Below are positions 3,641 through 59,594 of a stretch of DNA of 64,000 nucleotides, piece after piece. The notes beneath the pieces were generated by a model. The model did no database searches. It was not told the origin of the DNA and was given only the letters and a program-made list of their open reading frames with translations. Each line of letters starts with the position of its first letter. Positions within the stretch are counted from its first letter, which is position 1. A program made the translations under genes and the position numbers. Source of the DNA: Candidatus Omnitrophota bacterium. GTDB taxonomy: Bacteria > Omnitrophota > Gorgyraeia > 2-01-FULL-45-10. The DNA lies in contig JAQVUX010000004.1 of NCBI GenBank assembly GCA_028699255.1, forward strand, positions 24,668-88,667, written 5' to 3'.

Positions 3641-3994
3641 ATGTTATTATACATAACATTGGGGCTTATAGCCGGTACGCTTTCCGGGATGTTCGGGATA
3701 GGCGGCGGGACGATACTCATCCCCGGACTCATATTCTTAGCCGGTCTTTCACAGCATGAAGCGCAGGGCACGACGCTTGCGATCATGCTACTGCCGATAG
3801 GGCTTCTTGCCGTCATGCGATATTACCATAGCGGCCACGTCCGACTGAATATTGCCGCGTTTATCTGCCTGGGGTTTCTTGTGGGCGGGCTGATCGGCGC
3901 CAATGTAGCCGAATGCGTGCCCAATCTTATCCTGCGGAAAGCATTCGGGGTCTTCCTTATGATAGTTGCCACTTATACCATCTTCGCGAAATGA
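3641..3994 (+). CDS. TSUP (TauE/SafE, DUF81) family membrane protein, half-size (4 TM)
   Basis: GMFGIGGGTILIPGL motif. It is only 117 aa, whereas full-length TSUP proteins are about 250 aa. Confidence 0.6.
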   Translation: MLLYITLGLIAGTLSGMFGIGGGTILIPGLIFLAGLSQHEAQGTTLAIMLLPIGLLAVMRYYHSGHVRLNIAAFICLGFLVGGLIGANVAECVPNLILRKAFGVFLMIVATYTIFAK

Positions 3995-5571: not shown

Positions 5572-8500
5572 ATGAATAGCAGAATAGGGATTTTTAGAGT
5601 ATGGATTTTTGTATCGGCAGTATTTGCCGGAGCGTTATTCACCGCACCTGCCTATGCCGCCAACCAGGTGCCCGGGATTGTTGCGATAACTCCGTCGTCC
5701 GGCTCGTCGTCCGCCGGCACGGCCGTTACGTTCCAGGTGAAATGCTCCGACGGTAACGGCGCGCAGGACATACGGTATGTTTATTTTTTGGTGAATATGA
5801 ATATCGCATATCCAAAATGTCTTTACGCATACTATGACCGCGTTACCAATAAGTTGTATATGATGAATGACGCCGGTACCGCATGGGTGGGTGGTGAGTT
5901 TTCCGGCTCTTCAAGCGTGATAGAAAATTCGTATGCCCGGCTTAACTGCGCGAAGACGGTTTCACTATCCTCCGGAACGATACTCACCATGCAATGGAAT
6001 GTTACATTCAAAAACGCGTTTGCGGGCCTGCGGAACACATATCTTTACGCAAAGGATAAGCAGGGCGCTGCCTGCGCCTGGATCAGAGCGGGCGCGTGGA
6101 TAATAAAGCCTGAGGCCGGCGCTCCTTATGGCAGTATCGTTATTAACAATGGGAATATGTATTCCAAATCGGCGTCGGTTACTCTCCAGCTTTCGGCAAG
6201 CGATAATCCGGGGGGCTCCGGTCTTTACCAGATGAAGTTTTCCAATGATAATGTGAACTGGACCGCACCGGAACCATATGCTGTTAAAAAGGGCTGGGAT
6301 CTTTCTTCAGGCGACGGCGTCAAGAAGGTGTATGTAAAATTTTCGGATAAGGCGGGTAACTGGTCGGCCGCGCGCACCGCCAGCATAACTCTCGATACGG
6401 TTCCTCCTAAAATCGTGATAACAGACCCTAACGGCGGAGCGGTGGTCAGCGTGCCGGCGCTTACGGCAAGTTACACGTCTGACGGCGCCGCGAAAACCAA
6501 AAGTCTTAATCTATCCGAGGGTCTGAATACGGTAACAGTGTCCGATGCGGACCAGGCCGGAAACGTTGCTGTGGCCTCCGTGCAGGTGACCCTGGCTTTG
6601 ACGCCTCCGGTTGCCGCTTTTACCGCGACGCCCGTAAAGGGGGAGGCGCCGCTTACGGTACAGTTTACGGATAGCTCTACCGGCAGTGTTACGGGATGGT
6701 TGTGGAGCTTCGGCGACAGCGCGACAAGCACAGAGCAAAGCCCGGCGCATACGTATTTAAGTAAGTATTTATGGGAAACAGAATATACGGGCGATGACCT
6801 CCCGGATAATTCTTCTCCGGCATGGACGAGGTATTCTACCTCTAATCCGGCGATAGAGGAGATCTCGGAAGGCGCTCTGCATATTAAGTCCAATCTTTAT
6901 CCGGATGGAGATTATGTATCGTATCAGCGGCCTGCGTCATTCAAAGCATCCAGGGCATATATAGTTGAAGCCAGATTTAGGATGGGGCATGATGACGGTT
7001 TCGGACACGGGACTACATGCCTATCCGTAACGGATGATAAATACTCATGGCGTCTTGATTTTTCGGAATACGATATTGGCATAGAATATTGCATCGATCG
7101 CAAGGCAACTTACCGGATGGATACGGTATCGGACTACCATACATATCGCGTGTATGTGAATAACGGTATTGTAGAAGTATTTGTTGACGGTGTGAAGAGG
7201 ATGCGGGCGGACATGACCTATACGGAGAAAGATGGCCCTTATGTGCCATCGATAAGATTTGGACAATTGTGGGGACAAGTGCAGTCAAGCCTCCAGGATT
7301 ACAGGTCTAATCCACTCATACCGAATATAGAGACGTATTGGGATTATGTCAGGTGCCACAGTTTTCCAAGCTCGATGGGGTATGAAAGTTACTACAATGT
7401 ATCGCTGGCGGCGTCAGGGCCGGGAGGGGTGAATACAAAAACAGTTTCGAGTTGTGTAGATGTATTGCCGCCTTATCCGGAAATATTTACAACGGGCCTG
7501 CCGGATGGTGTGGTGCATGATGTTTATTCCGAAAATATCCATCAGAATTATGCCGTACAGCCATTTACATGGTCGATCGTGAGCGGTTCCCTGCCGCCCG
7601 GCCTATCTTTTACCAACGGTTATTCTCCGCTTATAGAGGGGCGGCCGACACAGGCGGGGACGTACGGTTTTACATTGGGCCTGACAGATTACAAGGGGCG
7701 CTCGACAACTAAATATATAGAAATGAAAGTCGAACCATACCCTCAATGGACGGACAGGGAGCTCTTGACTGAGACCATGACACATGCGGCTCAGTACTTC
7801 TACTACAAGGCGCTTTCAAACGGTTTTGTGCAGGATGTCAATTATTCCGGCTCCTGCTCGAGTGTCGCGGCTACAGGTTTCGGGCTTGCGGCAATGTGTA
7901 TCCTGGACGAGTTTGCCGGATGTCCCGATAATCCGTATTGCAATATCCCGGCCGCCAATATACGCGCCAGAGTGAATCAGATACTCGATAACTGTATAAC
8001 ATACCAGGGAATGCAGACGGAATCCGGGAACAGCTACGGGATTGGCGGGTTTCTTTACCATCTTATCAATGCGGATGGTACGCGCGTCAGTGGAGAAGTC
8101 TCGACGGTGGATATGGCGATATTTATGGCCGGTGCGGTTACCGCGGGTGAGTATTTCGGCGGAGAAATCAAAGAGAAGGTTGAAACGATATATAATAATC
8201 TCAACTGGCGGTTTTTTCTCCTGACGAATCTTAAACGGTTCTCTCACGGGTGGTCTCCCAATAGCGGCATTATCATATACAACTGGGACAGGCCGGGCGA
8301 TGAAGCGCTTTTAGTATCGATAATGGCGCTTGGTAAAGAGCCGGACGCGCTCGATTTCTTAGAGACGATGTATAGCTGGCCGCGCGTTGAGCGCGAATAT
8401 GCCGGATATAAGGTTTACAATTCTTATTTCGGATCGTTATTCACATATTATCTCGCTCATTGTTTTGTGGATTTTCAAAAACTCGGGGCTGATAATCCTT

Positions 8501-14545: not shown

Positions 14546-15482
14546 AAGAGATATTGTGGTTATAGGCGGAGGCCCGGCTGGTATGGCGGCCGCGGCGGCG
14601 GCTTACGCGGCCGGGATAAAGGATATTCTTCTCATAGAGCGCGACCAGTATCTGGGCGGGCTTCTCAACCAATGCGTCCATACGGGATTCGGGATAGGTT
14701 ATTTTAAACAATTACTTACGGGCCCGGAATACGCCGACAGATTTATAAAGAAGATAAACGCGATATCGGACATAGAGGTAAGCCTGCGATCGTTCGTCGT
14801 GCGCCTGGCGCCCGATAAGACGGTTACATATCTTGTGCCGGGTAAACTTTGCGAAGTACAGCCGCGCGCGCTTATAATGGCGACCGGTTGCCGCGAGAGG
14901 ACACGCGAGATGATACACATCCCCGGCACGAGGCCTGCGGGCGTATTTTCCGCCGGGCTCGCCCAGCGGCTTATAAATATCGAGGGGTTGTTGCCGGGCA
15001 GGGAAGTGGTGATAATCGGTTCCGGTGACATAGGGCTTATCATGGCGCGGCGTTTTACGTTCGGCGGCGCGAAGGTCAAAGCGATAGTCGAGATACAGCC
15101 GAAGACCAGGGGGCTGGCGCGCAACGTCGTCCAGTGCGTTGATGATTTCGATATACCGGTATATTTTAATCACAAAGTCAGGAAGATCCGCGGCCAGGAA
15201 AGGGTTGAAGGTGTCGATATCGTTCGCATCGATGAGAATATGAATGAAATAGCCGGCACGGAGCTTAAAATAGACTGTGATACCGTGCTCGTATCGGTCG
15301 GGCTTATTCCGGAGAACGAACTTATCGAGATGGCGGGTTTTACCATCGATGAGGAGAAGAACCCGGGAGTATTCGTCTGCGGAAACGCGCGCAAAGTTTA
15401 TGACTATGTCGACTCTGTAACCGCCGATAGCGAGCTTGCCGGTAAGCGCGCCGCGGAGTTTATAATAAGAGGTAGCCGATGA
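14538..15482 (+). CDS. NAD(P)/FAD-dependent oxidoreductase (pyridine nucleotide-disulfide oxidoreductase family), second subunit of the clostridial/Thermotoga-type G3P dehydrogenase complex
   Basis: VVIGGGPAGMAAA and VVIIGSGDIGL Rossmann motifs. The start is chosen at ATG 14538, overlapping the glpA-like stop (ATGGTTAA). Confidence 0.75.
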   Translation: MVKRDIVVIGGGPAGMAAAAAAYAAGIKDILLIERDQYLGGLLNQCVHTGFGIGYFKQLLTGPEYADRFIKKINAISDIEVSLRSFVVRLAPDKTVTYLVPGKLCEVQPRALIMATGCRERTREMIHIPGTRPAGVFSAGLAQRLINIEGLLPGREVVIIGSGDIGLIMARRFTFGGAKVKAIVEIQPKTRGLARNVVQCVDDFDIPVYFNHKVRKIRGQERVEGVDIVRIDENMNEIAGTELKIDCDTVLVSVGLIPENELIEMAGFTIDEEKNPGVFVCGNARKVYDYVDSVTADSELAGKRAAEFIIRGSR

Positions 15483-15874
15483 CGACGAAAAAGTTCACCT
15501 GTATAGAATGCCCGAGGGGCTGTACGCTTTCGGTGGATATTGAAAACTGCAAGGCCGTAAAAGTTACAGGCAACGGTTGTCCTAAGGGGGTCGCGTATGC
15601 CCTGACCGAAGTGGAAGCCCCGGTAAGGATATTGACCGCCACCGTTATTGCCGATGGCCTTGCGTTGAAGCTGGTTCCCGTGCGGACGGACAAACCCATT
15701 CCAAAGACGGATCTTTTTAAGGCGATGGAGGAGATAAGGAAGATACGGATACTTCGGCCGGTGAAATGCGGCGATGTGATAGAGGAAAATTTCCTCGGGT
15801 TGGGCGTGAAGCTGATAGCCACCAGAGAGGCAACCGAGGATAGAATAACCGCGCATAGAATAACCGCGTATTGA
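15479..15874 (+). CDS. DUF1667 domain protein (small Cys-rich subunit commonly encoded after glpA-like oxidoreductase pairs)
   Basis: CIECPRGCTLSVD...GNGCPKG motifs. Its last 12 codons (EDRITAHRITAY) are encoded by the tandem repeat array that starts at 15843. Confidence 0.7.
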   Translation: MTTKKFTCIECPRGCTLSVDIENCKAVKVTGNGCPKGVAYALTEVEAPVRILTATVIADGLALKLVPVRTDKPIPKTDLFKAMEEIRKIRILRPVKCGDVIEENFLGLGVKLIATREATEDRITAHRITAY

Positions 15875-16083
15875 GAATAACCGCGTATAGAATAACCGCG
15901 TAGGTTATTCTGTGGTAAGCCGGTAGTAAACCTACGCGGTTAACAGGTTGAGAATAACCGTGCGTAGAATAACCGCGTATAGAATAACCGCGTAGGTTAT
16001 TCTGTGGTAAACCGGTAGCAAACCTACGCGGTTAACAGGTTGATATTCTGTGGTAAGCCGGTAGCAAACCTACGCGGTTAGCA
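15843..16083. repeat. Intergenic repeat array of 2.5 copies of an approximately 110-bp unit. Each unit has 2-3 tandem 15-mers (AGAATAACCGCGTAT) followed by a strong hairpin with a 15-bp perfect stem (TAACCGCGTAGGTTA / TAACCTACGCGGTTA).
   Basis: Left arms at 15893-15907 and 15985-15999. Right arms at 15929-15942, 16021-16034 and 16067-16080. Loops are about 21 nt. There are no regularly spaced unique spacers, so it is not CRISPR. A related solo copy lies at 59519-59572. Confidence 0.85.
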
Positions 16084-16100
16084 TGTGAGGAGAAGATAGA

Positions 16101-26373: not shown

Positions 26374-26394
26374 ACAATACAAATATATACAGGT

Positions 26395-26631
26395 CCTGCT
26401 TAAAGCAGGATAAAAGGGAAGCTTGTAAAGTCAAGCGCGGTCCCGCCGCTGTAACCGGGGACGAAAGTCACAACTAGCCACTGTCTAGTATTCATTAGGC
26501 GGGAAGGCGTGATGAGTAGACTGATCCGGCAGCCAGAAGACCTGCCTGTATGTGTAGCCTCGCGGAAGGATTAAGTAAGCAGGGTGCAATCCTTAAGCTT
26601 TTTATAATTAGCTTAAGGATTTTTTTATTTT
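26395..26631 (+). ncRNA. Cobalamin (AdoCbl) riboswitch with a transcriptional expression platform, upstream of thyX-nrdD-nrdG
   Basis: In order: GGGAA (26416-26420), CCCGCCGCTGTAA (26442-26454), GCCACTG (26477-26483), GGGAAGGC (26501-26508) and the B12 box AGCCAGAAGACCTGCC (26531-26546). Then an antiterminator hairpin AAGGATT...AATCCTT (26566-26594) that is mutually exclusive with a terminator CCTTAAGC...GCTTAAGG + T-run (26591-26631). Confidence 0.75.
26591..26631 (+). terminator. Riboswitch-controlled intrinsic terminator
   Basis: CCTTAAGC (26591-26598), loop tttttataatta, GCTTAAGG (26611-26618), followed by ATTTTTTTATTTT. Confidence 0.65.
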
Positions 26632-31031: not shown

Positions 31032-31055
31032 GGGGAGATATATTTTTTTCGATAT

Positions 31056-31078
31056 AAATGGAAATGATTTTCATTAAC
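31056..31078. promoter_or_regulatory. Candidate Fur box (AAATGGAAATGATTTTCATTAAC) upstream of the DUF5320/NifX-like Fe-S gene cluster
   Basis: It contains the inverted repeat AATGAtttTCATT, resembling the Fur-box core AATGATAATCATT. A second Fur-box-like CCATTATCATTAA lies at 30536-30548, overlapping the fur RBS. Confidence 0.3.
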
Positions 31079-31106
31079 AGAAACTTAAGAAAAGGAGGTG
31101 ATTAAG

Positions 31107-42798: not shown

Positions 42799-42848
42799 CT
42801 TGACAATCCATCTTTGCGTGTTACTATAAATAGAAATGATTTCTATTT
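42799..42848 (+). promoter_or_regulatory. znuA promoter (TTGACA-N16-TACTAT) overlapped by a perfect 11-1-11 palindrome TAAATAGAAATgATTTCTATTTA (candidate Zur operator)
   Basis: The -35 is at 42799-42804. The palindrome is at 42826-42848. Its architecture is like the B. subtilis Zur box TAAATCGTAATnATTACGATTTA. Confidence 0.55.
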
Positions 42849-42860
42849 ATAAAAAGGAGG

Positions 42861-59509: not shown

Positions 59510-59518
59510 TTGGAGCGG

Positions 59519-59572
59519 AGATAACCGCGTAGGTTATCTCCGAGACAACACATGCTAACCTACGCGGTTAGT
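59519..59572. repeat. Solo copy of the palindromic element (ATAACCGCGTAGGTTAT...TAACCTACGCGGTTA) between porG and porD
   Basis: The stem arms are identical to those of the array at 15843-16083. The loop differs. The 3' flank CGCGGTTAG(T/C)CATG is also shared with 16073-16086. Confidence 0.8.
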
Positions 59573-59594
59573 CATGATACGGGGTAGGATTCAA

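Follow-up and report, generated by a model that had tools for sequence, protein, structure and literature searches.

Palindromic REPIN-type elements at gene junctions of a Candidatus Omnitrophota contig and the association of their family with RAYT-like transposase genes

A 64-kb stretch of contig JAQVUX010000004.1 from a Candidatus Omnitrophota bacterium (assembly GCA_028699255.1), referred to here as the window, carries palindromic elements at two gene junctions. One is a tandem array between a DUF1667 gene and a Na/Ca-exchanger-family gene, and the other is a solo copy between porG and porD. With a probability of roughly 80%, these elements are of the repetitive extragenic palindrome (REP) and REP doublet forming hairpin (REPIN) type. 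Each is composed of an inverted pair of a 13-nucleotide core, AACCGCGTAGGTT and AACCTACGCGGTT, around a spacer, and the family is tied to an HUH/Y1 transposase that resembles REP-associated tyrosine transposases (RAYTs). Close relatives differ in whether they carry a copy at an orthologous site, and the family is a large one, scattered over intercistronic junctions in Omnitrophota and some further uncultivated lineages. At the DUF1667 junction, the copy grew locally via tandem duplication of 15-nt and 92-nt units.

The kind of element is well known; it is found here in the little-studied Omnitrophota as well as in Elusimicrobia and Roizmanbacteria. No paper in the library searched connects Omnitrophota with REP or RAYT, and neither Omnitrophica nor candidate phyla came up when PMC6006769 was searched by term.

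Structure and folding of the window elements

The features of the two junctions are listed below by position in the window. Loci in other contigs and genomes are denoted by L numbers throughout.

15479-15874: DUF1667 gene, stop TGA at 15872-15874
15842-16086 (+): tandem array between the DUF1667 gene and the Na/Ca-exchanger gene
15842-15888 (+): three tandem 15-mers AGAATAACCGCG(C/T)AT, starting at 15842, 15857, and 15874
15889-15951 (+): array unit 1, with small REP hairpin, core, 22-nt spacer, inverted core, and tail AACAGGTTGA
15889-15911 (+): small REP hairpin of unit 1, AGAATAACC-GCGTA-GGTTATTCT
15894-15906 and 15929-15941: cores of unit 1, AACCGCGTAGGTT and inverted AACCTACGCGGTT, separated by the 22-nt spacer
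15951-16043 (+): array unit 2, a 92-bp repeat of unit 1, with two 15-mers and tail AACAGGTTGA
15981-16003: REP hairpin of unit 2, with the unit 2 cores at 15986-15998 and 16021-16033
16043-16079 (+): partial unit 3, spacer and second arm only, inverted core at 16067-16079
to 16092: end of the unit 3 region, family tail AGCATGT followed by GAGGAG (16087-16092), 8 nt before GTG 16101
16101: GTG start of the Na/Ca-exchanger-family gene, downstream of the interval 15842-16092
59510-59594 (+): inserted segment of 85 nt, missing by alignment from the empty porG/porD site of relatives
59517-59576 (+): solo element at the porG-porD junction, both 13-mers around a 21-nt spacer unlike that of the array
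59517-59541 (+): solo REP hairpin, GGAGATAACC-GCGTA-GGTTATCTCC
59551-59576 (+): solo inverted REP hairpin, CATGCTAACC-TACGC-GGTTAG(T)CATG, including ATG 59574

A first-pass annotation of the window had described the DUF1667 junction as about 2.5 copies of a 110-bp unit. The array and its repeated unit are real, but the unit recurs every 92 bp; there are 1.8 full copies, 97% identical to each other, and a partial unit. The 15-mer direct repeats that it placed before the hairpin (AGAATAACCGYGYRT) begin at 15842, 15857, 15874, 15951, and 15966; the 15-mers of the form AGAATAACCGCG(C/T)AT each reproduce part of the REP hairpin's left half. Both full units contain perfect 14-bp inverted arms, TAACCGCGTAGGTT/AACCTACGCGGTTA (15893-15906/15929-15942 and 15985-15998/16021-16034), and the solo element has a perfect 15-bp stem (59522-59536/59556-59570). 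Core order in the array is + - + - - with a 92-nt period, the regular spacing and alternating orientation of REPs that characterize a bacterial interspersed mosaic element (BIME).

Together, the two junctions hold seven cores, all those present in the 64 kb of the window; a genome with REPs typically has more than 100 dispersed copies. The 12-mer ACCGCGTAGGTT has seven exact occurrences in the window and 12 matches at two or fewer mismatches, against 4.1 expected, and 0 of 100 window shuffles reach 12. The strong GC bias previously ascribed to the elements is not borne out, as the array region has a GC content of 0.44-0.49 against about 0.5 in its surroundings.

The solo copy is a related hairpin with the same 13-mers as the array and a different loop, in agreement with the first-pass annotation. 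Both strands of the small hairpin's lower stem are changed between the two, from AGAAT/ATTCT in the array to GGAGAT/ATCTCC in the solo copy. The 3' flanks of the two are alike, but the difference between them (CGCGGTTAGCATG in the array, CGCGGTTAGTCATG in the solo copy) is a 1-nt indel and not the alternative pyrimidine (Y) written earlier.

The exact array copy number of 2.5 is provisional. Logan contig SRR22315503_205850 (L191), which encodes an identical DUF1667 protein, breaks 29 nt past the gene end and within the array, which indicates that such repeats fragment Omnitrophota assemblies. This break, the single unit in the closest relative, and the 97% identity of the units over 92 bp could all reflect a short-read assembly artefact at a locus that truly has one unit. 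That explanation is quite unlikely, since the full units differ at specific positions, the third is a distinct partial with its own tail, and tandem arrays with an 84-nt period exist in L135 and L178. It bears on copy number only and not on the nature of the element.

The 13-mer is itself near-palindromic, with AACC and GGTT around GCGTA. Each element has two alternative folds, either one long hairpin in which the 13-mers pair or two small pentaloop hairpins. The long form with a 14-bp stem is the minimum-energy structure of array unit 1, at -15.9 kcal/mol (z = -4.9) as single-stranded DNA (ssDNA) and -25.8 kcal/mol as RNA. The solo element favours the two-hairpin form, at -19.3 kcal/mol (z = -6.0) and -32.4 kcal/mol, respectively. 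The z-scores of the ssDNA folds span -4.1 to -6.0, and those of the RNA folds are -5.2 for the whole array, -3.9 for unit 1, and -4.6 for the solo element; the RNA fold of the partial third unit alone is no different from shuffles (z = -0.2). The small hairpins are 23-26 nt long and lie within the 20-40 nt of REP stem-loops. A GTAG sequence is invariant (GCGTAGGTT). In the small hairpin it spans the pentaloop and the first stem pair on the 3' side of the stem, whereas the long hairpin pairs all of it.

A compensating variable lower stem was rejected as a family-wide rule, as 16 of 173 cores have at least four extra flanking pairs (4.1 expected). It is a trait of a minority class of cores that includes the window copies. 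CRISPR was rejected on sequence for lack of regular unique spacers, and integron attC because its core sites RYYYAAC/GTTRRRY do not fit. DNA uptake sequences, a dif site, and intrinsic terminators were also rejected on sequence, and neither window element has a sense-strand T tract or terminator-like site. At the gathering threshold, the sole Rfam match in the whole window is a cobalamin riboswitch elsewhere. A permissive Rfam search of both elements gave chance-level matches (snoRNA, miRNA, and trpB) far under gathering.

Dispersal of the family and variation at orthologous junctions

Metagenome contigs were scanned for the exact inverted pair of cores with 0-30 nt between the arms. The pair was found in 70 metagenome contigs and in no phage contigs. 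Adding the genome matches and the window gives 85 doublets with spacers of 0-29 nt, each with the two inverted REPs, short spacer, and one-hairpin fold of a REPIN. A scan of GTDB genomes with one 14-mer yielded at least 120 loci, mostly chance matches. Hairpin-type copies among the matches listed come from Omnitrophota, an 'Elusimicrobia' metagenome-assembled genome (MAG), a 'Planctomycetia' MAG, and two Roizmanbacteria genomes. A search for further copies had been proposed as a check on dispersal, and dozens are shown at other gene junctions in related metagenomic contigs, from genomes other than that of the window.

Forty-eight doublets could be classified by gene context: the neighbouring genes are co-directional for 37, convergent for 5, and divergent for 2, and the remaining 4 doublets fall within open reading frames (ORFs). 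The family is extragenic in this sense, with 44 of the 48 outside ORFs of at least 90 amino acids. A doublet is typically about 10 nt from the upstream stop and somewhat farther from the next start.

The spacers are highly diverse, the arms being fixed by the search. Most spacers, such as GCCnnnGGC, GGGATAAATCCC, and ACCACAGTTGTGTGCAACTGTGGT, are self-complementary and lengthen the stem. Such varied, self-complementary spacers point to a constraint on the folded strand and not to a fixed distance between two protein-binding half-sites. They also bear on whether the inverted 13-mers, as perfectly conserved palindromic half-sites upstream of many genes, form the operator through which a dimeric DNA-binding protein governs a regulon. 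This is very improbable, because a half-site distance of 0-29 nt with a usually self-complementary spacer does not fit a dimer of fixed geometry. In addition, the sites are within operons and not at promoters, and the downstream genes are functionally unrelated.

Two subfamilies can be described by spacer, core, and tail. The window-type subfamily has the spacer …TGTGGTAAGC…GGT and a tail of ARCAYGG followed by purines. It comes mainly from metagenome Ga0265296, where most of the 12 contigs with doublets belong to it, and the tail is common to at least 10 copies in other contigs. The second subfamily is arranged in tandem with a period of 84 nt, and its cores include variants such as AACCGCGTCGGTT (L135 and L178); L135 has the highest local density, with 14 cores in 12.9 kb. 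Of 130 flanks (L121-L190), 46 have a GGT(T) at a distance of 4-6 nt from the hairpin foot on its outer side, against about 6 expected by a rough estimate. The possibility that this GGT is merely the downstream ribosome-binding site (RBS) was rejected, since an ORF start follows only 18 of the 46 GGT-bearing flanks; it is partly element tail.

The tails are lineage-specific (GGGGTGGTT, GAATAGGTT, and AAAAAGGTA) and are often also the RBS of the next gene. A second small palindrome, CGACCTCGGAGGTCG (L192:10439-10466), lies beside window-type doublets. A similar one, CCTCGGTCGGAGACCTCGG, is found in the flanks of L147 and L156, and the window has neither.

Orthologous sites differ between close relatives at both window junctions. 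The window PorG is MDD3905772.1. The porG/porD element is found, with two point changes, in a relative whose PorG is 99% identical, and four assemblies with 89% PorG identity (L196-L199) have an empty site, TAA-AG-ATG, with a 2-nt spacer and the RBS for porD inside the end of porG. At the DUF1667 junction, L192, which is 96.5% identical to the window over 10 kb, has one unit and two 15-mers in place of the 2.5 units and larger number of 15-mers of the window, and its DUF1667 stop is a TAG inside the core. A 74% orthologue has no element. In L165, a window-type doublet lies between glpA-like and Pyr_redox_2 genes that overlap in the window. Relatives that carried identical sequence would have pointed to an ancestral, locus-specific structure, and they do not carry it.

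Comparison of the occupied and empty porG/porD sites gives no clean target-site duplication. The first-pass annotation had offered miniature inverted-repeat transposable elements (MITEs) as an alternative. Small, non-coding palindromes with presence/absence polymorphism could be MITEs that descend from a DDE-type insertion sequence and are mobilised by it. That origin is extremely unlikely here: besides the missing duplication, the conserved part is the hairpin core, and no distinct terminal inverted repeats enclose a variable interior. None of the examined copies has a DDE transposase beside it, and only a Y1 gene recurs.

The 3.5-kb por operon accounts for five of the 70 metagenome loci, and its junctions are occupied in at least two further lineages. 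Doublets with short GCCnnnGGC spacers occur at porG/porD and porD/porA in other Omnitrophota lineages (L127:5772-5806 and about 6100-6135; L141:3475-3509 and 3805-3839; L149:1298-1332). Their loop triplet varies by sample (CAC, ATA, and GTA) and their stems are identical. In L127, a stop/RBS segment may be duplicated and diverged on either side of the insertion. The porD/porA junction of L196 (2405-2485; also L197-L199) has a different long palindrome, with TAGGTT hexamers in one arm and CTAGAACC in the other, that ends just before the porA start codon. It looks like another REP-like family with a TAGGTT motif.

Association with RAYT-like transposase genes

ORFs of the repeat-bearing loci were probed with an approximate E. 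coli RAYT sequence, which served as a probe only. Six ORFs were picked. Five ORFs are above the gathering score of Pfam Y1_Tnp (PF01797), and in NCBIfam those ORFs match best to NF047646, 'REP-associated tyrosine transposase', with scores of 59-77 bits. The L080 ORF scores 77 bits with the RAYT model against 20 bits with the IS200 model, and the others have no listed IS200 match. The L170 ORF, the only one searched against the PDB, has TnpA-REP (4ER8) as its best match (E = 1e-5), above ISDra2 TnpA. The HUH (MPxHxHL) and tyrosine (RYIHxNP) motifs of a RAYT domain are invariant, and so is a WQ pair. The WQ pair aligns with 'iwq' of 4ER8 in the L170 alignment, and W94/Q95 have been named in connection with GTAG recognition (PMC6006769, PMC3479197).

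The repeat is present on both sides of the transposase gene in L137, L150, L063, and L080, and in L170 a doublet lies on one side only. L063 also holds a second, partial transposase copy. Because these first five loci were chosen for bearing the repeat, homologues from a profile search served as an independent test. The search gave 5,421 family clusters at E <= 1e-20. Named family matches listed are called only 'transposase' or 'putative transposase' and come from Omnitrophota, Roizmanbacteria, Elusimicrobia, and Endomicrobia. Four homologues were picked blind to their DNA, and all four are bracketed on both sides, as follows.

L200, complete 1.55-Mb Omnitrophota genome: variant CTTACACC-TCGTA-GGTGTAAG (CACC-TCGTA-GGTG) on both sides, inverted
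L202, Omnitrophica: exact cores, one pair upstream and another pair at the gene's 3' end
L205, Elusimicrobia: inverted hairpins with the exact core, one 44 nt upstream and the other 8 nt downstream
L207, Roizmanbacteria: a core with 1 mismatch on each side

In total, nine transposase loci are flanked by the core or a close variant, all in genomes other than that of the window. A RAYT gene bracketed by REPs is the arrangement described as a REPtron (PMC2817692, PMC6006769). The earlier reading of the window elements as mobile palindromes of the REP/BIME sort, placed at gene boundaries within operons, is upheld by these nine loci, by the empty or variable orthologous sites, and by the dispersed copies.

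The gene context is recurrent. The order valS-nadC-RAYT-uvrB occurs in three assemblies (L202-L204; gene at L202:10001-10687), and murB-RAYT-ddl(-ftsQ-ftsA) in two (L200 and L201; gene at L200:10001-10660). RAYT-like genes in such conserved housekeeping clusters fit a domesticated, vertically kept gene. No tnpB adjoins the RAYT genes of L200-L207. A 113-amino-acid ORF next to a window-like doublet (L179:613-954, - strand) covers just the C-terminal half of the RAYT model, at 39 bits and without HUH. It is probably a decayed gene or a member of a different Y1 family.

Several observations weigh against the REP/REPIN-RAYT reading. There is no RAYT gene within the 64-kb window, and no member of the RAYT family was found with the accession prefix of its assembly, so that a cognate RAYT elsewhere in this genome can only be inferred, by analogy. 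The NF047646 scores are 3-21 bits under the equivalog cut-off of 80. Canonical REPs have an unpaired GT[AG]G just 5' of the hairpin foot, and the present hairpins do not. Four RAYT loci (14-21 kb) have no copies beyond those that bracket the gene; some genomes may hold very few copies. Finally, the position just upstream of RBSs is very regular, and por junctions are occupied repeatedly in separate lineages. The last two facts hint that target choice or host selection, beyond selfish spread, shapes the distribution, which is a doubtful but possible addition.

The same regularity prompts one to ask if the hairpins are primarily host regulatory RNA that sets mRNA stability, processing, or translation, with their repetition due to recruitment of a shared protein or RNase and the transposase link secondary. 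Several observations speak for this reading. Of classifiable copies, 77% lie between co-directional genes, a few nt from stop and start. At least 10 of 12 window-type loci are oriented alike relative to the downstream gene when judged by eye (L122 and L147 are ambiguous), and in those an RBS and start codon follow the tail. Por junctions are occupied in at least three lineages, and the 89% relatives carry a different palindrome at porD/porA. The RNA folds are stable (-25.8 and -32.4 kcal/mol). However, the site is empty in close relatives with an intact operon, which makes the hairpin dispensable, and the spacers, tails, and unit numbers vary freely. The sole recurrent neighbouring family is the core-bracketed RAYT, no known RNA family matches, and tolerated positions in compact operons alone would yield the same placement. 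A primary role as host RNA is unlikely on this balance. The roles suggested in the first-pass annotation, as mRNA stabilisers, attenuators, or recombination hot spots, are conjectural.

Predicted mobility, known systems, and neighbouring genes

A mechanism can be proposed for the REP/REPIN elements by analogy with E. coli TnpA-REP and with IS200/IS605 (IS608) (PMC2817692, PMC3116915, PMC3479197, PMC6006769). A RAYT encoded elsewhere in the genome would bind the folded core on single-stranded DNA via the GTAG that it contains, cleave and rejoin strands, and so move the non-autonomous doublets in trans. Insertions would be tolerated only in the few nt between a stop codon and the next RBS, and an inserted element would be co-transcribed with its operon. 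Predicted side effects are a new C-terminal tail and stop for the upstream gene, separation of the downstream gene from its old RBS, and a stable mRNA hairpin.

The closest known systems share parts of this architecture. E. coli REP/BIME with TnpA-REP (YafM; 4ER8) has the short extragenic GTAG hairpins, alternating clusters, operon sites, and Y1/HUH gene bracketed by repeats, and 4ER8 is the best solved-structure match. Identity to E. coli TnpA-REP is low (E = 1e-5), and the present proteins are longer, at about 210-220 amino acids. In contrast to E. coli, GTAG lies in the loop and 3' stem and not unpaired 5' of the foot, and the stems are perfect whereas E. coli TnpA-REP needs a bulge. The hosts are Omnitrophota, Elusimicrobia, and Roizmanbacteria, whereas the E. 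coli type is found in Proteobacteria.

The REPINs of Pseudomonas fluorescens SBW25 (PMC3116915) are likewise inverted REP doublets with a short spacer and one long hairpin. They are also non-autonomous, tied to a RAYT (single-copy in SBW25), and marked by presence/absence and local duplication. Unlike in SBW25, the spacer ranges from 0 to 29 nt between lineages, the 13-nt arm is identical across phyla, and most copies are directly upstream of an RBS between co-directional genes. The GTAG REP superfamily (Di Nocera et al. 2013, PMC3733652) also contains GTAG palindromes between unidirectional genes and head-to-head dimers. Subclass 2.8 of the TnpAY1 proteins (Quentin et al. 2018, PMC6006769) has the HYH form of HUH that is also seen in the Roizmanbacteria proteins. 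Compared with both of these systems, the tag is not at an unpaired end.

With IS200/IS605 members (IS608 and ISDra2), the family shares the HUH/Y1 domain PF01797, recognition of subterminal hairpins on ssDNA, and the expectation of no target-site duplication. It differs in the lack of a tnpB partner, in its conserved housekeeping contexts (murB-ddl and nadC-uvrB), and in scoring far higher with the RAYT model.

Work on REP/REPIN-RAYT systems is almost confined to Proteobacteria, and the same architecture is found here in Omnitrophota, Elusimicrobia, and a lineage of the candidate phyla radiation (CPR). The same 13-nt core is kept with RAYTs that are only about 43% identical across different phyla. 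Such a core is a compact substrate for the question of how a RAYT reads a hairpin, with GTAG internal and spacers free. For annotation, genes of the transposase family can now be named, and pairs of occupied and empty sites are natural experiments on intercistronic insertion and operon expression.

A more speculative and rather doubtful extension is that the REPIN family is a portable intercistronic module and more than selfish DNA. The core may supply an in-frame TAG, as in the L192 DUF1667 stop, and the tail may hold a Shine-Dalgarno-like run (GGGGTGGTT, GAATAGGTT, and ARCAYGGGAGG). If so, insertion would uncouple overlapping genes and give the downstream gene a new RBS. In that case, selection at the level of the host, or a preference for RBS sequence as target, would lie behind the recurrence at por junctions and the retention of the core.

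In the DUF1667 ORF, repeat sequence makes up the final 10 codons and the stop (RITAHRITAY*). The first-pass annotation had 12 codons overwritten; the repeats do supply these 10 codons and the stop, but no functional codons are lost. The DUF1667 Pfam domain is complete (residues 35-116 of 131), and orthologues stop 2-9 residues past ATRE, which together indicate that the tail was replaced or extended and that no functional segment was lost.

The solo copy had been said to supply the apparent upstream start codon of porD. That candidate, ATG 59574, does sit in the conserved tail of the element, but it is probably spurious, and ATG 59595 is the likelier start. ATG 59595 aligns with orthologue N-termini and is called as the start in the 99% relative. 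It is preceded by an RBS, the Shine-Dalgarno-like GGGGTAGGA at 59581-59589, which is new within the 85-nt segment and ends 5 nt before it. The hairpins account for contig breaks, spurious upstream starts such as that of porD, and odd C-terminal tails such as that of DUF1667 in MAGs of this kind.

Two further features were noted in the window. The cobalamin riboswitch lies at 26374-26563 (+) and matches at 118.5 bits over the full model length. A perfect 13-bp palindrome, TATAAATAGAAAT-G-ATTTCTATTTATA, lies at 42825-42851, and a related sequence with 81% identity lies 11.8 kb away at 31053-31083. These two sequences look like operator sites.

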